In this document: piece after piece, positions 2,487-58,097 of the stretch | Position numbering within the stretch: the first letter of the stretch is position 1 | How the letters are laid out: every line of letters starts with the position of its first letter | IMG/VR virus record: IMGVR_UViG_3300025924_000004 | Coordinates: 6,834-70,833 of that record | DNA: 64,000 nt | DNA from: a virus | Lineage: Duplodnaviria; Caudoviricetes | Strand: one strand, 5' to 3' | Program-made: the position numbers and the translations under genes | The notes under the pieces: model-generated | What the model saw: the letters and a program-made list of their open reading frames with translations, nothing else | The model's database searches: none | Told to the model about the DNA's origin: nothing

Positions 2487-5400
2487 TTTCCTTTTTTTAC
2501 GTTTTGTCTTAATCCCGGTATACCTGTTTCCAAGTCTTCCTTAACGTATTTTAAAAGTCCGTGCTTCTTGTCAGGGGCACGTTTTTGTTGGTTTTTAGGA
2601 TTTATGCTAAAGGTTGATTTGTCTTTTGTATCTGTCACCGTTGCTAGCTGCTGAATGATACCCGGCTCAACTTCACCCTTAACTATATTTCCTACTAATT
2701 TATCAAATTTCCCCGTACTTCCCAAAGCACCTAAAATTTGGTCAGCACCGTTAGCTAAAGGTATGGCTTGTGCAAGACCGGAAGCAGTTGCTAAAGTTGC
2801 AGCCTCAATACCGTCCTGTTTTCTTCTGTGAGCGTCTAATACCTGCCTAAATGTTGCCCCGACCTGCATGGCTAAGAATATAGGGTGTTCTGTCATCCAT
2901 CGTGGTACATCTTGCCCATATACTCTTATTCCCCCCGCTTCCGGTTGGCCTTTCTTTTGCTTTCCGGGGCGATAAAAACCGCCAAAAGACTGCGGGTTAT
3001 AAAATCCTAATAGTAATGCCGCGCCACCTATAGAACCCTTTTTTAAATTATTAAGTATTTGTTCGGCTTCTTCCGGTTTGAGTTCACCCATGCCCTTGTG
3101 AAAGAAATAAGCTAACTTTTCTGCACCCGCACGTCTTGTCAGGTCAGACAGTCCTACACGGGCTAATTTAAGAGCAGATAATGAACCGAAAGCATATCGC
3201 GAACCCTCTAAGGCTATATTGGTAGGAACTTTAACGAAAGGCAGTAAAATACGAAATAGGGCTGCTGTGTTTTTAGCCCCCGTAGAACTACTGTTTTCTA
3301 AAGTACGCATAGCGGCCTCGTAAGCGGATGAAAGTTTATTGTCCCCCATAAATATAGCTCTGTTAGCATCTTTATAAGCATTAAGCCTGTTTTGGGCATC
3401 TATTGTAGGGTCAAGAGGGTCAAGTCCTTTCTTTGCCGCCGCTTCAAATCTTTTGGCGTAAGAGTATTCAAATATAGCTCTTTTGAACGGTGCTTTAATG
3501 GCAGAGTGCAGGTGTCCCCAAAAGTCTGCTGCTTCCGGTGGTAGTCTTCCTGCTACTTCCTTTCCATATAGTGCCGATATATCGCTTTGACCGCCTTTAG
3601 AAAGACTTAATTCATCAAATGAGTCTTTCATACCCTGCGTGGCTGCGGTAGCGTAGGAACGTGCTAATGCCTTTAAATTAGCTCCTGCTTCAAAGTCTGC
3701 TTTTGCGGCAAGACGTGGCAGTAATTTAGAATAACCTGAACCTAAAAGTTCTTCCGGTATTTTTAGGGAAAGAGTAGTTAATCCCGCTGCTGCCAGTTTA
3801 CCCAACACGGTTATAGAAGCAAGTTTAGCCCACCTACCCCACTTAACAGCAAAGTCAACTACTTTTCTGCCCACCTCTTTTTTGCTATTCGCTATTTCCG
3901 CTATCTGCTTATTTATCTTTGCTTGCTCCCGGTTGATGTCGGCACGTATTTTAAGGTAGTCGTTATCAACTTGTAGTTTACGTTGAGTTTTTTCTTCTAT
4001 GGTTCCTGTTTCATTTTGTGATTTAAGGTCAGCGAGTTTAGTTTCGGCACGTTTTTTTGCTGTTCCTAACCTACGCTCGTTATCTTCTTTAATTGCTTTA
4101 TCAAAACCGTCTTTGATAACTTCCTCTACATCTTTGTGATTTAATCCCTCGATGTGGTCTTTCAGGTCATTATAAACCTTATCCACCACTATTGATAAAG
4201 TATTAATACCATCGTGAACATAATTAATAGCCAGTTTGGTTAACGGCTCAATCATTTCAACTGGTATCTTATTTGCACCAATATCTTTTAGTGACTTGCG
4301 GGCAATAGTATGTAATGTAGCCAGTAGTTCAGCGCGTTCTTCCCTTAATTTTGTTCGGGTAACTTCTTTACGCGTCCTCCGTGCTATTTCACCTACCTTA
4401 TTGACAGAGCCTTGTTCCTGTAGTTTGCGTACCTGTTCTTCACGGTCGGATAGGTCACTTTCAAGTTGCTTTATCCTTGCGGTAGCATCTGTAAGTTGCT
4501 TTTCAAGTTCAGGACTTAACCCCTCACCACCGTTAGCTTGTTTGGCACGGTTTAAAATACGAACACGGGAGTAATCCCGTTTAAGCATTTCCTGCCTGTC
4601 ACGAAGCGTGATGCCAGCCCTGCGTCCTATTTCTTCGGTAGCGGCACGGTTTTCTTCGAGCAAGGCTTCGGTGCGCTCAAACTCTAAATGATTTTCAGCG
4701 GCATTTTCGGGGTGTTCATCGCTATCCTTTAATAGCGCATCCTGCCTGTTTTCAAGTTTTGCCTTGTGGTAACGTAAGGCGGCCTGCTGTTCCTCGGTAG
4801 CTACTACCTTTCCTTTGACGATATCTTTGGAAATTTTTTCGGGGTCAAGTTCACCGCTATCAATAAGGCGTTTGCCCTCTTTGTCAACATCGGCTAATTT
4901 CTTTTTCTGACGCGGCACATCTTCGCCACGTTCTGCTTCAACTTTGGAGTTAGTGATACCAGTTAACTTTTCCTCGCTTGACTGAACGCTACCGCTATCG
5001 CCTGTTTGTTGGCTTTTTTCTTCCCGAACTTTTTCTTCGTCTTTTGGAATGTTTTCCCCTTGTGGAACTCCGATATGTTGTTCGCTATCGTTTTCTTCGA
5101 TTTTCCCTTTTTCAACGGCATTGTCTTGTTCTTTTAAATCGGGTTCAGCCGATGCTTCCCCCGATTTGTTTACATCAGGTTTTTCTTGTGTCCGCCCTTC
5201 TTCGCTTTGGCTGCTTTGCCCTTCTTCGGGTCGTTCTGCCACTTGCTGTCCGGGTCGCCCATTTTCTTCTTGGTGATCTTCGCTTTTGGATTTGTCTTTT
5301 TCATTGCCTTTTTGTTTTAAAATTACGTTTTTAAGTTGATTGTTCAGTTCTTCCCTGTCTTTTTCTGCCTGTTCTAAATTTATTTCGTTTTCGGCATTTT

Positions 5401-22352: not shown

Positions 22353-25300
22353 CTAAGCTGTTCTTTTACCATATTTTGCTCTAAGGTCATATATCCTGTA
22401 CATTTGAACGGTATCTTCATCATGAACCATTTGACGGTGCTTGTCCTTCAACCCCATGAGTGCGTATCCAAAGGACATGCAAGCATCGTACAAAGTACGT
22501 TCTTTAACGTTAAATCCGAACATATCTCTTAATACTCTTAAATACCAAATTTTCCCTACGTTGGCAGATGCGTACTCAATCATTTCCGTTAAATGTTGTT
22601 CCCTACCCTCTCCATCCTGCGCGGCAATACCGTAGCGCTCCTCACCTGTTATTTTTAAATTGGTTTTAACACAGTACCCTAATAATTTTTTATCTAAAGC
22701 ATAGTCATACCACGTTATAGGGGAGCGTTCTATAAGTGCTTTTATACCGCAATACCGTAAACAAAGAAAGAGTTGTTCATGCATAAATGCTACTGAACTT
22801 GGCCTGCCTATACCAAGTCCCGCTATCATACCTGAATTATCGGGGTCTAAAGCATTGTACCGCTTAAAAATACAAATAGAGGCGTCAGAGCCTTTCTCTG
22901 CGGTAGTTTCGGAGTTGTTGATTAAGTCAGCGCCAGCTACACCCCAATCGGTATTTGTGGGTGTCCTGTGACCGCCTATCCAAGTGTATTTGTTAGCATC
23001 TTTTTGTTCGGGTAAATCAAGAAAGTACCACATAAATTCAGGACTTTCATTTGGCGTTCCCAATTCAGCATCTTCAAAATAAGCATCACCATTTGAACTT
23101 GCCCTGAATAAACCTTTTCGATATAGCGAAGCGTATTCTAATTTTGCTTCTACCCGTTCAACTTGGTCATTCAAGTCTTTTATGTTAAAATAACAGGAAT
23201 TATTAGCGCCCCTGAAAACTTCTTCGGGTGTAAAGGGAAACATTCGTATTTCTTCCTGTAGCTTTTCGGGGTCATCAGCTTTTAATCTTCGCTGTAACTC
23301 ACAGTATGCTTTGCACCCCATGTATGGGTCAAGCGTATAGGGGTCGTTTTTCAACCATTCTGTCTGCGCCTCTGTCGGGGTGTCCCAAACCGAATTTCCA
23401 AACTTATCAACCCATCCCAAATCCCTGCCACCCATGTAGCCGGGGATGAAATATTGAATGAGTTTATTTTTAGTTTGCCCCAATTCATCTAGGTCGTCCT
23501 GATCTGAACCATCCCAAACGATTTTATATCGTGTACCACCCTTATCTCCTTTGTTTACAGTAGTGATGCAGACTATTCGCCCCATTTCCTCACCTGCTGT
23601 AATAATATTGGATGCAATCTCCAAATATTCATCTATGGGTACATCTGTAGGCCATTTACCACAATTCATAGTTATAGTAAAGTCTTCTAATATTAACCTC
23701 CTATCTTCATCGCAATCCGCCTTTACCTGTATACCAATATACTGACCTATACCTAATTTACTTATTTCAATTCTATTCCTTCTAAAAGCATACTGCTTTT
23801 CATACTTATTAAAATTTTTCCTTTTTACAATGGTTGGTATTGTTGATAAGTCACCGCTAATGGATAGTTTCCATGTATCCGAACCAAAATTTGATTTAGC
23901 GTACTTTATATTGGATACGGAAAAACCTAAACTTTTAGCCAAAAATGAAATATCTTCTATTATACCCATTTTTGACATAGCAAAAGTTATTGAACCGTGT
24001 CGTTTGCCTTTAGAGGCGTGCCCATCCGTATCTATTAATCCGGCAAGTAGTTTAAGCCTATTTTCTCGTGAATTGTGTAAATAATCGGTTGGTATCCTTT
24101 TGTTTTTATAAACGCCAAGTCGTTTAAGTTCTGTTGTTAAGTAATTAACACTACCATGCTTTTTATTAAGATTATATATAACCCACACGGCTTTTTTACA
24201 GTAACTTATTGGATTAACTGTTGTTATATATCCCTTTTGCTGACCGTAATTAACAAGATGTGATAACAATTCAGGCTCATCAACAAAATTACATATAAAA
24301 GATAGCCCAGTATACCTGCCATCCCCTATCCACGCTCCAAAAATATACGGGTCAATAAGCATTTCTTTTTCAGGAAAAACTAAACCCAAACTTCTTAATC
24401 CATGTGTAGTTCTTTTTCTATACTTTCCTAATTTTATAAACTGTTCTGGTGTATAATACTTTATTCCGTCATCTTTTATACTGTCAACCTTACATCTTTG
24501 CTCTAAGTACAATCTATGCCTAGAGGAAACTATATAATCTTTTGAATATGGTTGATGAATACGATACATTTCATCATAACCTTCAAATTTTTGCATAACA
24601 GGTAATAATTTACCTCCTTCAACATAAACTAAGTCACCTATTTTAATATCTTTTATTGGTCTAAAAATATATCCCTCACAAAGTATTTTAGTGTCGGGGT
24701 GTAGACATTCATCCAGTAGCAAAAACCATAGTCCGTCACCGTCAAATACGTTTGATTTTGGTGCGCGCCACTCTATCCTATTGTTTAATCCGTCCTTACT
24801 TGCGCCCGTGGCTTGGTCTTTGGTTATTTTACCTGCCTGCTTAGTAATATGCAGCGTTGTTTTTGGGTCGTCTGTTCCGCTGATACGAGGCTTTAAGAAG
24901 TTAGGAAGTCGTGAATACCCATTAACAAGCATTAATTGAAATATCTTTTCAGCGTCTTTAGCAGCCATTGAAGTAATACCTTCTTCAATATTTTGCTTAA
25001 TAAGACCAAATTGAAGCATAATAGACATGCACATGGTGGAAACGTGCTTACGCCTACCCTTCATGGTATTTCCACCCCTGCATTTATGATTTTTAAAAAA
25101 CACATGCTCCATGAAGTACATGAAGCTGATGCAGGTATCTTTAAACTTAGGGTAAAACCCTTCTTTGGTAACAAACCATTGAAAATAGAAATATGCGAAC
25201 AGGTTTAAATAAACGGGTCTTCCTTCTATCATTACCCATTCACCATGCAAAATCCTGTCTATTTCGTCGTAATACCATTCAAGCTGACCGGGTGATGGTT

Positions 25301-25481
25301 TATCCCACCACATTGCGCCCTTTTTGGGGTCGTCATTCCAATTCCACTGCTTGTATTCAGTATGCCGCGTCCATACTTGGTCTTGAAGTTTAAGGTGGCT
25401 ACCTCTTATTTTTTTTAAGGGGGGTATTTCAGGTGTTTCGTACCAAGTGGATTTCCATAAATTAAACCTTTGTGTTGCCAT
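22353..25481 (-). CDS. terL: terminase large subunit with intein
   Basis: MKGRRKHVS (Walker A region), LLLDE/CGKW (Walker B, split by the intein), nuclease domain ending YDACMSFG. Confidence 0.9.
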   Translation of the reverse strand: MATQRFNLWKSTWYETPEIPPLKKIRGSHLKLQDQVWTRHTEYKQWNWNDDPKKGAMWWDKPSPGQLEWYYDEIDRILHGEWVMIEGRPVYLNLFAYFYFQWFVTKEGFYPKFKDTCISFMYFMEHVFFKNHKCRGGNTMKGRRKHVSTMCMSIMLQFGLIKQNIEEGITSMAAKDAEKIFQLMLVNGYSRLPNFLKPRISGTDDPKTTLHITKQAGKITKDQATGASKDGLNNRIEWRAPKSNVFDGDGLWFLLLDECLHPDTKILCEGYIFRPIKDIKIGDLVYVEGGKLLPVMQKFEGYDEMYRIHQPYSKDYIVSSRHRLYLEQRCKVDSIKDDGIKYYTPEQFIKLGKYRKRTTHGLRSLGLVFPEKEMLIDPYIFGAWIGDGRYTGLSFICNFVDEPELLSHLVNYGQQKGYITTVNPISYCKKAVWVIYNLNKKHGSVNYLTTELKRLGVYKNKRIPTDYLHNSRENRLKLLAGLIDTDGHASKGKRHGSITFAMSKMGIIEDISFLAKSLGFSVSNIKYAKSNFGSDTWKLSISGDLSTIPTIVKRKNFNKYEKQYAFRRNRIEISKLGIGQYIGIQVKADCDEDRRLILEDFTITMNCGKWPTDVPIDEYLEIASNIITAGEEMGRIVCITTVNKGDKGGTRYKIVWDGSDQDDLDELGQTKNKLIQYFIPGYMGGRDLGWVDKFGNSVWDTPTEAQTEWLKNDPYTLDPYMGCKAYCELQRRLKADDPEKLQEEIRMFPFTPEEVFRGANNSCYFNIKDLNDQVERVEAKLEYASLYRKGLFRASSNGDAYFEDAELGTPNESPEFMWYFLDLPEQKDANKYTWIGGHRTPTNTDWGVAGADLINNSETTAEKGSDASICIFKRYNALDPDNSGMIAGLGIGRPSSVAFMHEQLFLCLRYCGIKALIERSPITWYDYALDKKLLGYCVKTNLKITGEERYGIAAQDGEGREQHLTEMIEYASANVGKIWYLRVLRDMFGFNVKERTLYDACMSFGYALMGLKDKHRQMVHDEDTVQMYRIYDLRAKYGKRTA
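23664..24707 (-). mobile_element. intein with LAGLIDADG homing endonuclease (348 aa)
   Basis: starts CLHPDT, ends ITMN before +1 Cys; FGAWIGDG and LAGLIDTDG motifs. Confidence 0.9.
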
Positions 25482-31842: not shown

Positions 31843-32415
31843 TTAAACCGTCTCATAACTCCAACCGTTTATATTATCTTTGGCGTATCGTGTTAATGTC
31901 TTATAATTAAAGCCAGTTGCTTTGGCAGCTTCATAACTTGAACCGTATCGTTCGCCACCATAACAATACCATCCTTTAAACTTCGGGTGTTTAGAGCCTA
32001 TTTTAGCCTCGCTCATTAACTTTCTTGTTGTTTGTGGTACTTCTCTACCAAAATTATAATGATCTTCACCTTGTGGCATCTTATGACCTAATACCTCAAA
32101 CCTGTGTTTATGGTTTTGGCTGTGTGTAACCCATTCTAGATTTGTCTCATAATTATTTAGCTTATTGCCATCGTAATGGTTTATCTCCGGCAGGTTGTCA
32201 GGATTGGGTATAAAATGCTGACCAACTAACCTATGCGCATACTCCCACTTGCCAGCAATCCAGTACATTTTATAGCCATCGGGTTTAACTGCTCCCCTTA
32301 CAATAGCTGTCCCATAACGCTTGATGATTGTTTCGTCGGTGCGTTTTAGTGTCCCATAATTACCAATCAGGAATTTATTATCCTGTTTGCAGGGTTTAAA
32401 TACTTCATTTTCCAT
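31843..32415 (-). CDS. HNH homing endonuclease
   Basis: YAHRLVGQHFIPNPDNLPEINHYDGNKLNNYETNLEW. Confidence 0.9.
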   Translation of the reverse strand: MENEVFKPCKQDNKFLIGNYGTLKRTDETIIKRYGTAIVRGAVKPDGYKMYWIAGKWEYAHRLVGQHFIPNPDNLPEINHYDGNKLNNYETNLEWVTHSQNHKHRFEVLGHKMPQGEDHYNFGREVPQTTRKLMSEAKIGSKHPKFKGWYCYGGERYGSSYEAAKATGFNYKTLTRYAKDNINGWSYETV

Positions 32416-36452: not shown

Positions 36453-37130
36453 ATGAAAAAAGATTATTCCCACTTAATTGGAGTAAAGAAGGATTTTTTA
36501 ACTCCGATAAAAATAGTGACAAAAATGTGCACTGGCGAACGTTGGAGGCGTACCTTCTTGGAATGCAAGTGTGACTGTGGTAATACATACCTTGCTCTTT
36601 GCTATATTTTCGACAAAAACAAGAGAAAGATATTTTCATGCGGTTGCAAACATGTGTGGGGAGGGGTGACACATGGCAAATACAATACCTCTGAATATCG
36701 CTCTTGGGCTGCGATGAAACAAAGATGCTACTCTCCTAAAAACGCTTATTATCATTTATACGGTGGTAGGGGTGTGTCTGTGTGTGATCAGTGGAAAAAT
36801 AGTTTTACTGCTTTCATAGAAGATATGGGACAAAAGCCAACCCCAAAACACACCATTGACAGAATTGATACAAACGGTAACTACGAACCCGGCAATTGCA
36901 GGTGGGCAACCGCTTATCAACAGGCCAACAATCAAAGAAATACTATTTTGGTAGAATTTAACGGCAAAACTCAAAGCACCTCTGAATGGAGTAAAGAGGT
37001 GGGCATTTCAAAAAATACGATATACACTAGAATTAGAAATGGGTGGACTGTAAAAGATACCTTAACAAAACCAATAACCTCACATAATTTAAAACCTAAA
37101 ATTAAAAAGAAATGGAAACACTTGAATTAA
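36453..37130 (+). CDS. HNH-type endonuclease
   Basis: CKCDCGN, YGGRGVSVC, HTIDRIDTNGNYEPGNCRWAT; own TATATTTG promoter. Confidence 0.85.
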   Translation: MKKDYSHLIGVKKDFLTPIKIVTKMCTGERWRRTFLECKCDCGNTYLALCYIFDKNKRKIFSCGCKHVWGGVTHGKYNTSEYRSWAAMKQRCYSPKNAYYHLYGGRGVSVCDQWKNSFTAFIEDMGQKPTPKHTIDRIDTNGNYEPGNCRWATAYQQANNQRNTILVEFNGKTQSTSEWSKEVGISKNTIYTRIRNGWTVKDTLTKPITSHNLKPKIKKKWKHLN

Positions 37131-37721: not shown

Positions 37722-38288
37722 TTAATCGTTTAAACCAAGATATTTCTTTAATCTGTTTAACTTATTTTCGGGTATCAGGTGTATAAAAAGTTTCACCCGT
37801 TCAACTATTTTTGGGTATATTGGCATTTGTTTACGGGTGTCCGCGTCTAAGTGGTCGAAAGTATTATGGCAACTGCAATCACTAAAAAGAGCAACCCCCA
37901 TAAACGCCCGGTTTGACGGATGCGTGGCAACTTCGGGGAATAAACTTTTGGGCACAATATGAGCCGTAACACAGCGTTTAGCCCACTTGTTAAATGCGTT
38001 TAGCTTTTGGTTGCAGTTCTCGCATCTTTCGGGTACGTCTTGGCTCTCATACCATTTATCTAAATCGCTTTTGTTGTTTAGCCTTTCAACTGTTTTGGAC
38101 ACATTGCGTTTAAGGTGGTTTTTAGGCTCTACAATCAATTTTGGGTCAATTGTGGTGTATGTGTCCACCGGTAGCATAGAACGTTTATTACAGAGGCAGT
38201 AAAGCCCATCAGGGCGGATATTATTTAGGTACCATGTTTCGCCCTCAAAAATATATTCTTTTCCTCTCTTTGGTCTTGGGTTCATCAT
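37722..38288 (-). CDS. HNH-like/zinc-binding nuclease
   Basis: CENC...AHIVPKSLFP...CSCHNTFD. Confidence 0.6.
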   Translation of the reverse strand: MMNPRPKRGKEYIFEGETWYLNNIRPDGLYCLCNKRSMLPVDTYTTIDPKLIVEPKNHLKRNVSKTVERLNNKSDLDKWYESQDVPERCENCNQKLNAFNKWAKRCVTAHIVPKSLFPEVATHPSNRAFMGVALFSDCSCHNTFDHLDADTRKQMPIYPKIVERVKLFIHLIPENKLNRLKKYLGLND

Positions 38289-38851
38289 GAATTTTTTACT
38301 AATTTATCAATTCTGCCTTTGTGCAATCCCTGTAGTGTTAATAATTGTTTCTCAAGTTGGGCAAACTGTTTAATATTCAAACCTTTGTTTCTACTTAAAA
38401 CAACGTTAATAATCCTAATAACAATATCGGGTGCAAGAACGGTGATGTTTTTGGAAACATTACATCCCTGACAGGCAGTTATTAAATTATCCATAACCGT
38501 TAATCCTCCAATTACAATAGGGTTAATATGTTCTACGTTTAACTTAACCCCATCCTCAATTGAGGATTTACCACAATAAATACATCTAAATCCATCCCGA
38601 TGAAATATTGAAAAATCGCTCATTTTGGTTTTTTGCAATCGCGCCCTATTAAAAAGTGTGCAACACCTGTGCGAACAATATAGATTAGCGTCTGTAGTTG
38701 GCTGAAATTCATTTCCACAATGCAAGCAATTTTTTCTCTCTAAATTATTCCTTAAAGCCATTGATTTTCTATATTCTTTATAGCAATCTTTTGAACAATA
38801 CGTAGAAAGTGTCCATTTTTCTTGGCAATTTAAACATAACTTCCTTCCCAT
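38285..38851 (-). CDS. HNH endonuclease with N-terminal zinc fingers
   Basis: IFHRDGFRCIYCG...VEHINP..GG...NLITACQGCN. Confidence 0.85.
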   Translation of the reverse strand: MGRKLCLNCQEKWTLSTYCSKDCYKEYRKSMALRNNLERKNCLHCGNEFQPTTDANLYCSHRCCTLFNRARLQKTKMSDFSIFHRDGFRCIYCGKSSIEDGVKLNVEHINPIVIGGLTVMDNLITACQGCNVSKNITVLAPDIVIRIINVVLSRNKGLNIKQFAQLEKQLLTLQGLHKGRIDKLVKNS

Positions 38852-47080: not shown

Positions 47081-47105
47081 CTTCTTTGTGGTTTTAAATC
47101 TTCAC

Positions 47106-47210
47106 CAAAGATAAAACAATAGGAATGACATTTGCAACAGGTATTTGTAATTTATAATCATTCTAAATTGCAAATAAATTATAATTAATTAAAAATAGTA
47201 CTTATGTTTG
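47106..47210. promoter_or_regulatory. divergent promoters
   Basis: TATCTTTG (minus, 47113-47106) and TATGTTTG (plus, 47203-47210). Confidence 0.65.
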
Positions 47211-47229
47211 TGGTGTCGAAAGACAAATA

Positions 47230-47416
47230 CGCGTTGTAGCTCAGTTGGTAGAGCATCATTCTGATATTGGATGTAAAAGAACGCCTCTAAAGAATAAAAG
47301 TAAAGAAAATATCTCTAAGGTTCGAAACTTAGGATAGAAGTAAATAAATTGTTTGAATAAAGGCCGGGAATTACTGATAACGATGGGGGTCATTGGTTCG
47401 AGTCCAGTCAACGCGA
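47230..47416 (+). tRNA. tRNA-Ile(GAU)-like gene interrupted by ~114 nt in the anticodon loop
   Basis: acceptor CGCGTTG/CAACGCG+A73; D arm GCTC-AGTTGGTA-GAGC; anticodon stem TCATT/GATGG; GGGTC; T arm ATTGG-TTCGAGT-CCAGT. Confidence 0.7.
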
Positions 47417-47417
47417 C

Positions 47418-47972
47418 ATGAAACAGATAAGGGAAACACCTGACTTAGTTTGCAAAAAACTAATCAGCAAATTGCCGATAACAGATGGGAGCAAGATTCT
47501 TGAACCGTCTATTGGCGAGGGTAAAATAATTGAATATCTATTAAAGCACTATACAATGGGTGGTTTGGATATTCACGGATTGGAATTAAATAAGGAGCGC
47601 ATGGTTAGGGCATCCGATGTTTTGTATCCGTACCGAAACGTAAGAGGCATAAAGATAAACATTCAGCAAGGGGATTTTATGGAGTATAAAGCTCCGCATA
47701 AAAATCTTTTTGATATAGTTATAGCCTGTCCGCCATTTAAAGCAGGGGCAGATTTGAGACACATTGGTAGAATGTACGAAATGCTTAAATACAAAGGTAT
47801 GATGGCATCGTTAACAAGTCCTTATTGGATAACCAATAATGAACCCCTGCAAATTGAGTTTAGAAAGTGGCTTGTCGGAAAGGATTATCAATTTGAGTTA
47901 TTGCCGGACAATACGTTTATTGAAAAAGACAAAAATCAGCCCACGGGTATATTGACAATTTATAAAAAATGA
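47418..47972 (+). CDS. class I SAM (N6-adenine-type) methyltransferase, atypical
   Basis: ILEPSIGEG motif I; motif IV reads CPPF instead of NPPF. Confidence 0.75.
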   Translation: MKQIRETPDLVCKKLISKLPITDGSKILEPSIGEGKIIEYLLKHYTMGGLDIHGLELNKERMVRASDVLYPYRNVRGIKINIQQGDFMEYKAPHKNLFDIVIACPPFKAGADLRHIGRMYEMLKYKGMMASLTSPYWITNNEPLQIEFRKWLVGKDYQFELLPDNTFIEKDKNQPTGILTIYKK

Positions 47973-48385
47973 TACCGACTAAAAATTTTCAAATAAGATG
48001 GAATGAGCCTTTAGGTGAGGATAATTGCCCCTATGCCTATAGGTGGGTTCTTATCTTATTTGGCTATTCAATACGCGTCCACAGGTGGATTAGAAGCGAT
48101 GATAAAAGATATATGCATAATCATCCGTGGTGGTTTATTACCTTTGTTTTAAGGGGTAGCTATAAAGATGTTTCACTTAATGGAGTTGAGTATTTAAAAA
48201 GATGTAGTCTTAAATACAGAAATTCAATGCACACGCATTATGTTGAAATACCCAAAGGTGGTGCATTAACATTATTAATAACCGGGAAACCTATGAACAA
48301 GTGGGGTTTTTGGATTAAAGACAGATATTTAAGACCTTTAAGATTTTTTAGTAGATATGGACATCCTGCATGTGACGAACAATAA
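47969..48385 (+). CDS. cupin-fold protein
   Basis: MHNHPW, VLRGSY, HTHYVE, TLLITG. Confidence 0.75.
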   Translation: MIPTKNFQIRWNEPLGEDNCPYAYRWVLILFGYSIRVHRWIRSDDKRYMHNHPWWFITFVLRGSYKDVSLNGVEYLKRCSLKYRNSMHTHYVEIPKGGALTLLITGKPMNKWGFWIKDRYLRPLRFFSRYGHPACDEQ

Positions 48386-52964: not shown

Positions 52965-53534
52965 ATGGCCCAAAAACTCGAACTCAAAGACCTTGCCTGC
53001 TATTTGCCGTATGGTATCATGTGCCAGTACGAGGGTATTATCAATGGCAAAGAACTTGCAGCTGAACAAAAGCAATTTGCCACAGATGGTCACCCGTTCG
53101 ATTTTGCAGCCAAGCCAAAAAAGGGTTTAAAGATTGCACCTATAAAAGAAATTCGGCTTTATAAAAATTACTGGAAAGCGTATATAGGTAATTACCCGCG
53201 TCACGCAAAATCATTTGTTAATGGTATTGGTTTCAAACCCCTAGTCATTCCTTTGAGCCAGTTGACAAAAGAAGAGTGGGTTGAGGTGTTTAAGGCGGGA
53301 TGCGCTGAATTTAACGACAAGTTTTCGGTTGACATCGACAATGAAAATTGGGTGACATTGGACTTGTGTTATGATATTTCGACATTTGATTTTCGCTGGA
53401 AGGAATTTAAAATCAGCCATCACATGCCGCCGTTCAACCAACTCGCAGCCTTTCAAAAACTATACTCACTCCACGCAGATTTGGATGACCTTATAGGCAA
53501 GAAAATTGGATTAAATAAATTAGATTTTAAATGA
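52965..53534 (+). CDS. hypothetical phage protein (YopX-like position and pattern)
   Basis: LACYLPYG...[11 protein letters not shown]. Confidence 0.6.
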
Positions 53535-54334
53535 ACCGCTCAAAAATGACATCAAGTATAATACCTTACGATGGTGAAATCGTTAAGATGATCGATGATG
53601 CGTTTTCAGTAACATCATTTGGGCGAGTGTTTGCAAATCCGTTTTCAGTATTAATGCCTTCTGGGCATTACCGAAAATTTGGATATAGGGAACTTGCGAG
53701 AGAATTAAACACGAATGGATACCCAACGGTCAGAAAACATCGTAGAGTTACTATTCATAGACTGGTAGCTACTGCCTTTATTCCAAATCCTGAAAATAAG
53801 CCACAGATTAACCATATCGATGGTAATAAACTAAATAACCGCGTAGAAAATTTAGAATGGTGTACTTGCGCTGAAAACATAAGACATGCGGTTATAACTG
53901 GTCTAATGAAAACCAAAAAAGTGCATTGTTACAACTTGGATGGAGATTATTTAACCACATTTAAGTCAATAGACGATGCTATGTCATTCGCTAATATAAA
54001 AAGTGGCATTTCCTCGTCTATAAGAAGAAAACAAAGCGCAGGTGGCTATCAATGGAGATACGATAACATAAGCTATAAAGACAATATCGGCAAATACGAT
54101 AGGAATTATTGTAGCCTGCGGGGAGAATTGCATCATAATAGCAAAAAAGTAGTGCAAATCGATTTAGCCGGAAATAAAATTCAAGTTTTTAGTAGCGTTA
54201 AAATCGCTCAAGATACATTAGGGATATACAATGTTGGCACTGTTTGTCTTGGTAAAAGAAATAATGCAGGAGGTAAATACTTTCTATACGAAGATGATTT
54301 TATGGCATTGAATAAGAACGATTATTTAAAGTAA
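53531..54334 (+). CDS. HNH homing endonuclease with two NUMOD1-like repeats
   Basis: [36 protein letters not shown]; [20 protein letters not shown]. Confidence 0.9.
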
Positions 54335-55191: not shown

Positions 55192-55734
55192 ATGAATGGA
55201 ACGAAGGCACACGAACTAAAAACAGTCCAGCCCTATTTTAACCAGCTTTTAAGCGGTGAAAAGACTTTTGAACTTAGGTTTAACGACCGTGATTTTCAGG
55301 TAGGCGACACACTTATTTTAAAAGAATACACTATTACAGATCATGACTTTTATGGCGGTGATGAGTATTCAGGTAGGTCAATAACCGTAAAAGTAACAAA
55401 TGTCCTTAGTGGGTTTAGAGGATTGGAAAACAGCTACTGTATTTTGTCTTTCGCCTCCCTCCAAACAGCCGGGCTTGAAGCCAAAATTATCGAATACGAA
55501 AAATGGCAAAAGTTGGATACTGATAAGATTATTGCGCTTGAGGAAGAACGGGATAGGTATAAAAAGGCACTGGAGGAAATAAGCGAACCAATGAGGTCGG
55601 AATACGAAGCCGCTTGCGCTGATGCTGACTGGTACAATAACAATATGCCCGGCGTAGGCCAATCCCTTGATTATAAGTCACGGCCTGCAAAACCAAAGGC
55701 ACTTGAAATTATTGATATAGCCCTAAATAAGTAG
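55192..55734 (+). CDS. ASCH/PUA-domain (DUF3850) protein
   Basis: HELKT..YF..LLSGEKTFELRFNDRDFQVGDTLILKEY. Confidence 0.85.
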   Translation: MNGTKAHELKTVQPYFNQLLSGEKTFELRFNDRDFQVGDTLILKEYTITDHDFYGGDEYSGRSITVKVTNVLSGFRGLENSYCILSFASLQTAGLEAKIIEYEKWQKLDTDKIIALEEERDRYKKALEEISEPMRSEYEAACADADWYNNNMPGVGQSLDYKSRPAKPKALEIIDIALNK

Positions 55735-57211: not shown

Positions 57212-57553
57212 ATGACAACAATAGAAACGAAATACGACGAAAGCAACCTGCTCATTGCACTATTTATGTGTGCAGAAAAAGACGGTGGCTCAACCATGGC
57301 GATAGATGGCACCTATGCCGAATCATATAAAGTTTGTCCTGATCCTAAATATCCGTTTCTGGATGAAACATTTCATAATAAACGCACATATAATGAAATT
57401 CATTCAATTTCAAACCTGCAATATCACACATCATGGTCATGGTTAATGCCCGTTTGTATAAAATTGAAAATTGATTATATTTGTACTGATATTGATAAAG
57501 CATATCAACAAGTTATAGATGAAATTAAAAAAAGAAAATTGGAAAAAAGTTGA
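57212..57553 (+). CDS. NinX-like hypothetical protein
   Basis: LLIALFM...YHTSWSWLMPV. Confidence 0.55.
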   Translation: MTTIETKYDESNLLIALFMCAEKDGGSTMAIDGTYAESYKVCPDPKYPFLDETFHNKRTYNEIHSISNLQYHTSWSWLMPVCIKLKIDYICTDIDKAYQQVIDEIKKRKLEKS

Positions 57554-58097
57554 AGGATGTGAATTTTATGAGGTATCTGATTTCGGCAACGTTAGGAGTT
57601 TAGATAAACCTGTTAATGGATGGAATGGCGTCAAAACAAAAACAGGTCGAATACTAAAGCCGGGAATCAGAAACGGATATAAGTCTATAGTTTTATCGGA
57701 TGGCGATAAGCAAAAAAATGCTCACATACATAGATTAGTAGCTTATGCTTTTATCCCTAATCCCCAAAATAAGGAAACTGTAAACCATATAGACGGTAAT
57801 AAACTGAATAACCATGTTGATAATTTAGAATGGGCTACCCGTTCAGAGCAACAACAACACGCTTTTAGAACCGGATTATATAAACCATACATCATCAATG
57901 CTGGTAAATCAGGCGCCTTGCATAATCGAAGCAGGGGTGTTATTCAAATGGATATGCAAGGTAAAATTATTATGCAGTTTGGGTCGCAATCGGAAGCGGC
58001 AAGAGAAACGGGATTTTATCAAACTGGTATATCTAAATGTTGCAGGGGCGAAATCGAACAGCATAAAGGCTTTAAATGGGTGTTCCACCAAACTTGA
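57519..58097 (+). CDS. NUMOD4-HNH-NUMOD1 homing endonuclease
   Basis: ENWKKVEG..YEVSDFGNVRS; IHRLVAYAFIPN...[17 protein letters not shown]. Confidence 0.9.
   Translation: MKLKKENWKKVEGCEFYEVSDFGNVRSLDKPVNGWNGVKTKTGRILKPGIRNGYKSIVLSDGDKQKNAHIHRLVAYAFIPNPQNKETVNHIDGNKLNNHVDNLEWATRSEQQQHAFRTGLYKPYIINAGKSGALHNRSRGVIQMDMQGKIIMQFGSQSEAARETGFYQTGISKCCRGEIEQHKGFKWVFHQT

Follow-up and report, generated by a model that had tools for sequence, protein, structure and literature searches.

The window analyzed here is a 64,000-nt stretch comprising bases 6834-70833 of the 70,833-bp IMG/VR virus record IMGVR_UViG_3300025924_000004, and it contains a tRNA-Ile(GAU) gene (47230-47416, plus strand) whose anticodon loop is split by an intervening sequence of 114 nt. 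The tRNA body is complete, homologous structured inserts occupy the same gene in related phages, their helices covary, and the insert matches no known kind of tRNA intron, implying either an undescribed route of removal or an unspliced function. The ends of the record are direct terminal repeats and its completeness is rated 100%; family scans identified a terminase, a portal protein, a GH25 endolysin, a primase-helicase and five HNH endonucleases among the encoded proteins, therefore the genome belongs to a tailed bacteriophage.

The interrupted tRNA gene and its homologs

The Rfam tRNA model RF00005 matches 47230-47416 end to end with 43.8 bits, versus a gathering score of 29; the match covers model positions 1-71 and places a 116-nt insertion state in the anticodon loop. 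ARAGORN in its default mode, where introns are off, calls no gene at 47230-47416. When introns are allowed, it finds a single tRNA gene in the whole 70.8-kb genome and reads it as Ile(GAU), interrupted at the canonical position by an intron of 114 nt; its free mode gives 'Tyr(AUA)', with the intron at 33/34, as an alternative. After in-silico deletion of 47267-47380, default ARAGORN calls a tRNA-Ile(GAU), and the same identity is assigned to the in-silico spliced genes of all six family members (6/6). The preliminary description of this DNA, which had reported a complete tRNA-Ile(GAU) body with an interrupted anticodon loop and had proposed intron-aware ARAGORN and Infernal-type model searches as checks, is thus confirmed in its central observation: RF00005 and the ARAGORN intron mode agree, no group I model matches, and re-reading of the sequence bore out all that it had said of the letters, the acceptor, D, anticodon-stem and T elements included. 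The gene ends with A73 and CCA is not encoded. Upstream, a TAnnTTTG element at 47203-47210 may represent a putative Bacteroidota-type -7 promoter box; the motif is mildly enriched genome-wide (59 and 54 sites, versus about 41 and 30 expected).

Relatives were reached through the gene just downstream, which encodes a 184-aa S-adenosylmethionine (SAM) methyltransferase and whose homologs adjoin the orthologous tRNA. Besides the window, five loci have a complete tRNA gene with a rod insert, namely L172, L122, L123, L173 and L176, with methyltransferase identities of 66, 53, 51, 44 and 39%, respectively; these are the six full members of the family. The locus with the highest identity, L121 (81%), lies on a contig that begins within the insert and provides only its 3' part. 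A diverged insert is found in L171 (55%), other, unrelated inserts in L174 (41%) and L177 (40%, 195 nt), and an intact tRNA with the loop CUGAUCC in L179 (37%). Two further methyltransferase homologs, L175 and L178, were left out, as their neighboring tRNA-like genes bear inserts and lack the CUGAU loop.

In the six members the insert is 106-121 nt long and is located at the same site of the orthologous tRNA-Ile. The homologous tRNAs have in common C1-G72, A73 and a loop starting with CUGAU followed by A or G; their acceptor and anticodon stems covary, and C32-U36 (CUGAU), purine 37 and A73 are fixed. Since inserts of this family occur in a Joint Genome Institute (JGI) assembly, a Logan assembly and an NCBI metagenome-assembled genome contig (L122), an assembly chimera is excluded; indeed, L123 and L124 are one identical sequence, obtained from JGI and from the Logan assembly of a Sequence Read Archive run. 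Intron similarity tracks methyltransferase identity from L121 to L176, and because it follows the methyltransferase tree, inheritance of the insert looks vertical rather than the result of recent mobility. Intron-less genes are also found: in addition to L179, four further phage tRNA-Ile genes (L197-L200) have the loop CUGAUAA and match L173 exactly in the anticodon arm, and for this reason an ordinary tRNA is taken as the ancestral state.

A covariance model, R1, built from the MAFFT alignment A4, scores the six members with 79-119 bits and the diverged insert of L171 with 26 bits (E ~1e-3), and finds no match in the inserts of L174 or L177. It detects one copy per record in two parent records holding a member, nothing in three jumbo-phage records and nothing in 886 kb of unrelated tRNA-rich phage loci. 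Exact scans of IMG/VR for the insert hairpin, and for CTGATA plus the hairpin, found none, and a scan for the hairpin plus GTYTNAATAAG recovered only L172 and L173. A search for D and T arms spaced 125-155 nt apart returned almost solely tandem tRNA pairs, and a metagenome scan for the hairpin plus a T arm gave 42 matches, all of them chance or tRNA arrays. No match was obtained by blastn against GenBank phages; genome-collection scans, with a methyltransferase profile and with a three-motif pattern, found none and therefore provided no lead to a host or a prophage.

The insert folds as an unbranched rod of four helices, Pa-Pd (Table 1). Proceeding outward, the layout comprises the anticodon stem, the bulged CUGAUR, a linker, Pa, a purine-rich internal loop, Pb, the AA/GAA junction, Pc, an A-rich internal loop and Pd, and independent minimum free energy folds of the L172, L122, L173 and L176 inserts give the same unbranched rod. 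At its base, the Pa linkers (47267-72 and 47375-80) can extend the pairing to the intron ends with U-A, U-A, G.U, G.A, A.G and U.U; in a manual structural alignment, the pair types at homologous Pa positions are GC/UA/AU, UA/CG/UG and AU/UG. The columns of Pb line up in the unfitted alignment A4, with 4/6 pairs doubly changed, and its C.A mismatch (47287 with 47360) is retained in five of the six sequences, L176 having a C-G pair instead. The conserved junctions AA (47290-91) and GAA (47355-57) set Pb apart from Pc, where 97% of the cells are paired, 3/6 pairs are doubly changed and a U.G at position 4 is invariant. The terminal hairpin at 47311-47335, already noticed for its T-loop-like loop, is present as described; its loop, read as GTTCGAAA, contains the palindrome UUCGAA, and R-UUCGAA-R is found in 6/6 members. 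Covariation in Pd involves all three pairs of the outer stem and four of the five pairs of the inner one. For the internal loops, K-turn, loop E and box C/D readings were rejected on the basis of Watson-Crick covariation at Pc position 2 and of the GAA junction, whose G is not invariant; an 11-nt tetraloop receptor requires G where A is conserved. As for coding capacity, the open frame of 24 codons reported previously does exist; it has no start codon and is not conserved.

In the manual alignment of the six sequences, 137/143 intron cells are standard pairs and 17/24 pairs show compensatory double changes. Because this alignment had been fitted by hand, the count was repeated on the plain MAFFT alignment A4, where the anticodon-stem (AC), Pb and Pc columns agree in 6/6 sequences and the inner Pd columns in 5/6. 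Here, 91.7% of the cells pair, versus 73.6 ± 2.3% in shuffles and 32-47% with partners slid, and 17/24 pairs are changed on both sides, versus 7.3 in shuffles; none of 500 shuffles reaches any of these measures. Judging from this pattern of substitutions, the insert is under selection as a structured RNA rod. Two of the objections that the preliminary description had raised against itself, a unique decaying remnant and an assembly chimera, fail, as relatives share the structured insert and independent assemblies agree.

A direct repeat, CTGATA, had also been considered to bound the insert. Both copies (47261-66 and 47374-79) are real and flank it; a role as boundary or target site is not borne out, since the repeat is lineage-specific, being absent from all relatives examined, and within chance: with 43 occurrences on the plus strand of the window, a second copy within 114 nt has a probability of about 8%. 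On both strands of the window the hexamer occurs 58 times, versus 24 ± 5 in dinucleotide-preserving shuffles. The repeat is an argument for considering the insert as a small, non-autonomous DNA element, similar to a miniature inverted-repeat transposable element, whose landing in the tRNA gene duplicated a CTGATA target, and the five HNH endonuclease genes of the genome could be cited in the same sense. This origin is barely credible, since the repeat has no counterpart in any relative and is expected by chance at the rate given above, terminal inverted repeats are lacking, the insert is present in a single copy per genome with no copies elsewhere, and its phylogeny follows that of the neighboring gene. 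More generally, both mobile-element and decay explanations are disfavored by the covariation.

Comparison with known inserts and introns

The preliminary description had stated that the insert fits neither a group I intron, nor a bulge-helix-bulge intron, nor a transfer-messenger RNA (tmRNA); each of these classes was tested and each failed. To our knowledge, all the established tRNA introns of bacteria and their viruses are self-splicing group I introns, which have a minimum size of roughly 200 nt, as in the Azoarcus tRNA-Ile(CAU) intron of about 205 nt. The rod shares with them the anticodon-loop site in a bacterial-type tRNA and an upstream exon that can be read as ending with U36; it differs in having about half the minimal size (106-121 nt), no P3-P9 core and no Rfam signal. 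Indeed, no Rfam group I (RF00028) or ribozyme match was found on 47100-47550 at E up to 10, and RF00028 gave no match at gathering in the relatives and none in the 195-nt insert of L177. The model works on this material, as it scored the tRNA-Asn intron of L175 with 70.1 bits; this is a genuine group I intron (L175:2281-2504) in a tRNA-Asn(GUU), located in a tRNA array of a related phage contig. Also the terminal G of group I introns is missing in three members: with a 7-nt loop and the anticodon GAU, the last intron nucleotide of the window, L172 and L176 is A, and only L121, L122, L123, L173, L171 and L174 can have G there. In the window, the register with U33 before the intron and G at its end gives the anticodon AUA.

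A degenerate group I remnant, or another dead insertion that has turned the tRNA gene into a pseudogene, is also very unlikely. Group I introns do occupy anticodon loops of phage tRNAs, as the 70-bit example in L175 indicates, a G lies two nt before the 3' strand of the anticodon stem in 6/10 sequences with a 3' junction, U36 precedes the insert, and L174 and L177 have unrelated inserts at the same site. Against such a remnant stand a length far below the ~200-nt minimum, the nil RF00028 signal and the A in place of the terminal G in three members, and a dead gene would not agree with the compensatory changes across rod and exons, which indicate ongoing selection. The unrelated inserts of the two orthologous tRNA-Ile(GAU) genes (195 nt in L177:2525-2796, about 125 nt in L174:216-415) directly follow CUGAUA and match neither R1 nor group I; the site seems prone to insertions.

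A bulge-helix-bulge was rejected because CUGA (32-35) has no UCAG or wobble complement at intron n-5 to n-2 (UGAU in the window, GACC in L122), and no anticodon-intron pair was found. ARAGORN predicts no tmRNA and the 3-70 pair is C-G, not G3.U70. A tRNA-shaped intron is not supported, since ARAGORN at a lowered threshold finds no tRNA in nine inserts, and the T-loop-like hairpin has 45-50 nt on each side without an adjoining acceptor-like stem; an excision by RNase P and RNase Z as a tRNA-like intron was discarded on the same ground, the insert having no tRNA shape. The rod does conform to the extended irregular hairpin, in place of a loop, that is typical of intervening sequences excised by RNase III; cuts by this enzyme with a 2-nt stagger were rejected, since the anticodon loop left would be of 9 nt.

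Among the possible registers of the rod, the one that would match the introns of archaeal and eukaryotic tRNAs, 37/38, keeps a purine at 37 (6/6). The rod resembles those introns in the absence of an open reading frame (ORF) and of a ribozyme core; moreover, the exon halves would here likewise be held by the tRNA body. In those organisms a splicing endonuclease cuts and RtcB or Trl1 seals, and protein-dependent tRNA splicing is regarded as an archaeal and eukaryotic trait. Differently from them, the rod has no bulge-helix-bulge and no anticodon-intron pair, and its carrier is a tailed phage that gave no EndA match. The introns of yeast tRNA-Ile(UAU) and archaeal tRNA-Trp aid modification of the anticodon loop, and an analogy is suggested by the methyltransferase and cupin genes that are syntenic with the phage tRNA.

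The intervening sequences of bacterial 23S rRNA, found in helices 25 and 45 and excised by RNase III, are similarly AU-rich, extended hairpins of about 100-150 nt at the tip of an RNA helix, with no ORF and no ribozyme. They are removed without religation, unlike what is needed here: decoding would be lost if the anticodon loop stayed nicked, hence either ligation or an unspliced function is required.

The rod family was seen so far only in tRNA-Ile(GAU), and in the open literature searched, nothing resembling it was found; the only related report concerned the tRNA genes with 'enigmatic' introns of the Lak megaphages (Devoto et al. 2019, PMC6784885). Like the rod, the Lak introns are ORF-less inserts of the anticodon loop, need an intron-aware prediction, are conserved in related phages and are unclassified by Rfam (PMC6784885); the Lak Thr(TGT) intron is tRNA-shaped, while the rod family is unbranched, with four helices and conserved motifs of its own. 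A comparison, geometric only, can also be made with T-box Stem I and the RNase P specificity domain, tRNA 'rulers' that act in trans via two interdigitated T-loops (PMC4919913): the insert is likewise a rod of about 100 nt running from the anticodon to a T-loop-type motif, and such a motif could reach the tRNA elbow. Unlike both of them, the insert has a single T-loop-like hairpin and is attached in cis.

Splicing or an unspliced function

The explanation we tentatively prefer is a vertically inherited intron of an undescribed structural class, carried by a phage tRNA-Ile(GAU) and excised and resealed by enzymes of the host. Excision and sealing by the host are favored because no known autocatalytic fold and no phage enzyme could be found. 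An intron needing removal provides the simplest synthesis of the data, with the exons selected as those of a decoding tRNA-Ile, the insert selected as a rod and an ordinary tRNA as the ancestral state. Splicing itself, the place of its junction and the enzymes involved are all inferred. Three registers, 36/37, 37/38 and 38/39, yield a 7-nt loop with the anticodon GAU. The one at 37/38 leaves purine 37 and pyrimidine 38 in 6/6 members; with 36/37 the intron ends in G in six sequences, the window, L172 and L176 not being among them; and the insertion of L173 maps to 38/39 by comparison with the intron-less CUGAUAA tRNAs that share its anticodon arm. The boundaries 47267-47380 could thus shift by 1 nt either way.

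In the proposed mechanism, the tRNA gene would be transcribed together with the 114-nt intervening sequence at or beside 37/38. The first and last nucleotides of the intron are predicted to pair, so that the splice sites would face each other at the base of the rod, beside the 5-bp anticodon stem, with the six loop nucleotides CUGAUR bulged out. An endonuclease, not detectably encoded by the phage, would cut both strands at this base, and the conserved Pb/Pc internal loop and the R-UUCGAA-R loop could serve it as a handle or a ruler. The exon halves would be kept together by the tRNA body until an RNA ligase of the host, such as RtcB, joins them; host enzymes would then trim the resulting 73-nt tRNA-Ile and complete it with CCA.

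Six-frame Pfam searches of the complete genome gave no match to Rnl2-type or Rnl1-type ligases, RtcB, EndA or RNase III. The controls were positive for all models except that of Rnl1 (PF09511), which was silent in every control genome, and its blank result has therefore little weight; the EndA model (PF01974), absent from the phage genome, was positive only in archaea, and RtcB was detected in Bacteroides thetaiotaomicron. With no phage match for these kinds of machinery, such proteins would have to be supplied by the host. Family scans of about 60 ORFs added an ASCH/DUF3850 protein (55192-55734), the HNH endonucleases, methyltransferases and a 2-oxoglutarate (2OG)-oxygenase-like protein, and no recognizable RNA ligase or splicing nuclease.

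The lack of phage machinery in the Pfam searches also speaks for a different possibility: the rod could be a small RNA of a new kind that splices or cleaves itself. The exons would then be joined autocatalytically or, if their ends carry 2',3'-cyclic phosphate and 5'-OH, by RtcB. In this case the conserved Pb/Pc internal-loop domain might fold over the purine-rich Pa/Pb hinge and dock onto the loop of the splice sites, much as the two domains of the hairpin ribozyme come together; the likeness to this ribozyme is topological only. The absence of an ORF, a compact, strongly selected fold that contains invariant unpaired nucleotides, and the presence of two internal loops, separated by a short helix and a flexible junction, are consistent with catalysis. 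The possibility is quite improbable, since even at E up to 10 the insert has no match among the Rfam ribozyme models and the presumed cleavage-site nucleotides are not conserved; moreover, we know of no precedent for two cuts and one ligation by an RNA of about 110 nt.

As the main alternative, the RNA may never be spliced. It would then be a tRNA-like product of about 187 nt, which RNase P and RNase Z would process and which might be aminoacylated. The rod would be its working domain and could, for example, offer the methyltransferase and the cupin a handle, have a regulatory role, or act as a decoy that diverts defence enzymes directed at tRNAs. The unpaired conserved motifs (the C.A mismatch, the AA/GAA junction and the R-UUCGAA-R loop) are of a sort typical for binding surfaces, UUCGAA both resembles the T loop of the tRNA itself and is complementary to it, and the tRNA gene keeps tight synteny with those of the methyltransferase and the cupin in phages that range from 70 to 675 kb; the failure to find splicing machinery in the phage by Pfam searches points in the same direction. 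Two cupin-linked loci also suggest such a function. In L201 (1516-1716), tRNA-like ends with C1-G72 enclose a hairpin of 8 bp whose loop has 10 nt, and a diverged insert of the rod type in which the GGGUUCGAAACC hairpin is retained, without a CUGAU loop; L204 (1468-1652) is tRNA-Ile-like, with C1-G72, encoded CCA and an intact anticodon hairpin (loop UUAAUAA, anticodon AAU), after which an insert of about 100 nt is located. Nevertheless, we regard an unspliced RNA as rather unlikely: CUGAU, purine 37 and every feature of the tRNA-Ile body are strictly kept in nine homologs, as expected for a decoder, the intron-less orthologs in the same module (L179, L202 and L203) indicate that the enzymes need no rod, and tRNA-Ile is the only tRNA of the phage.

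Several points weigh against splicing by host enzymes. Each of the three registers fits only part of the family, and the splice sites have no conserved sequence; only six full members are known, every one from metagenomes; and we know of no bacterial endonuclease that cuts such a substrate. In addition, L201, a distant relative, keeps the acceptor, D and T arms together with a rod-like insert and lacks the CUGAU loop, a state that hints at a role other than decoding.

The rod is thus an insert of about 110 nt, with no ORF and not of group I, placed at or beside the position of archaeal and eukaryotic introns and maintained by selection across a deep phage divergence, and it raises a testable question: whether bacterial cells are able to splice such a tRNA, and by what. 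Splicing would point to a new ribozyme or to an RNA-processing activity that is new, and the lack of splicing to a new type of tRNA-like phage RNA. Tailed phages may, with considerable doubt, possess a third kind of tRNA intron, a rod of about 110 nt removed from tRNA-Ile(GAU) in bacterial cells by an undescribed route, either a new ribozyme or an endonuclease and a ligase. Before its removal, the rod may present the anticodon loop to the methyltransferase and the cupin.

The methyltransferase-cupin module and other features

Table 1. Features of the interrupted tRNA gene and of the two genes that follow it, in window coordinates
Feature	Position	Strand	Basis or description
TAnnTTTG element TATGTTTG	47203..47210	+	20 nt upstream of tRNA position 1
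tRNA-Ile(GAU) 5' exon, positions 1-37	47230..47266	+	RF00005, ARAGORN with introns
Acceptor 5' strand CGCGTTG	47230-36	+	partner strand CAACGCG
D arm	47239-47254	+	read from sequence
Anticodon stem	47256-60 paired with 47382-86	+	5 bp
5' exon loop part CUGAUA	47261-66	+	read from sequence
114-nt intervening sequence (rod)	47267..47380	+	homologous inserts in L172, L122, L123, L173, L176; R1
Helix Pa 5' strand GUAA	47273..47276	+	pairs with 47371-47374 (UUAC), 4 bp
Helix Pb 5' strand GCCU-C-UA	47283..47289	+	pairs with 47358-47364 (UA-A-AGGC)
Helix Pc 5' strand GAAUAA	47292..47297	+	pairs with 47349-47354 (UUGUUU)
Terminal hairpin Pd	47311..47335	+	3 bp, bulged U (47314), 5 bp, 8-nt loop GUUCGAAA (47320-27)
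tRNA 3' exon, positions 38-73	47381..47416	+	C38, stem 3' strand, variable loop, T arm, acceptor, A73
T arm	47387-47408	+	read from sequence
184-aa SAM-dependent methyltransferase	47418..47972	+	weak Pfam N6_Mtase and Methyltransf_25 matches
138-aa His-rich cupin (predicted)	47969..48385	+	phrog_4786

The analysis also revealed a widespread phage module composed of tRNA-Ile(GAU), a small methyltransferase and a cupin, which recurs in phages of 70-675 kb, both where the intron is present and where it is absent; it was seen in the window (47418-48385), in L121, L122, L123 and L171-L179, and in L202 and L203. The methyltransferase has an xPPF motif, lacks a DNA-recognition domain and belongs to the amino-methyltransferase type; its nearest solved relatives are M.BseCI, MJ0882 and the RsmD-like HI0767. 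In every related locus reached through this gene it adjoins the tRNA, the exception being the P0016 loci L167-L170, where a tRNA is missing. The methyltransferase start codon is located 2 nt past A73 (A73-C-ATG, 47416-47420), as in L172 (2999-3003), and processing of the tRNA 3' end would leave an almost leaderless methyltransferase mRNA.

The second protein belongs to a virus-only family with more than 190 homolog clusters and no Pfam model, characterized by invariant His, Cys, Arg and Asp residues. Its AlphaFold2 model has a predicted local distance difference test (pLDDT) score of 94.5 and the best Foldseek matches are to the cupin TM1459; according to this model, it is a small metal cupin of the TM1459 type. 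The cupin was found by tblastn in every related locus, and among its homologs outside the methyltransferase set, L202 and L203 adjoin an intact tRNA-Ile; L201 and L204, described above, are of this set too. Both the methyltransferase and the cupin may act on tRNA-Ile.

In some loci the module is adjoined by tRNAs with the anticodon CUA, of the amber-suppressor type (L173:3724-3796; L179:863-936 and 2817-2982; L202:1180-1252; L203:277-349), which may point to stop-codon recoding in those phages; L179 carries a tRNA-Ile(UAU) as well. Two neighboring tRNA genes of L171 (1420-1780), both missed by ARAGORN, share an unusual T loop of increased size, UAAUCGAAA. On L002, a phage contig of high GC content, ARAGORN in its intron mode places an insert of 110 nt within the anticodon loop of a predicted tRNA-Thr(CGU) (4149-4327).

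As for the rest of the 71-kb genome, the five HNH homing-endonuclease genes are free-standing (31843-32415, 36453-37130, 38285-38851, 53531-54334 and 57519-58097). The large terminase ORF (22353-25481, minus strand) encodes 1042 aa and its PHROG match is split between residues 259-544 and 607-1015, perhaps because of an insertion, for example of an intein or of an additional domain. Finally, four IMG/VR loci, L184 (9487-9549, minus strand), L186, L187 and L190, have in common a conserved non-coding stretch around GGTTCGAAAGAGTAGACTCCGCCCTACC; this stretch lies downstream of an AT-rich, promoter-like region and may be an unrelated structured RNA.

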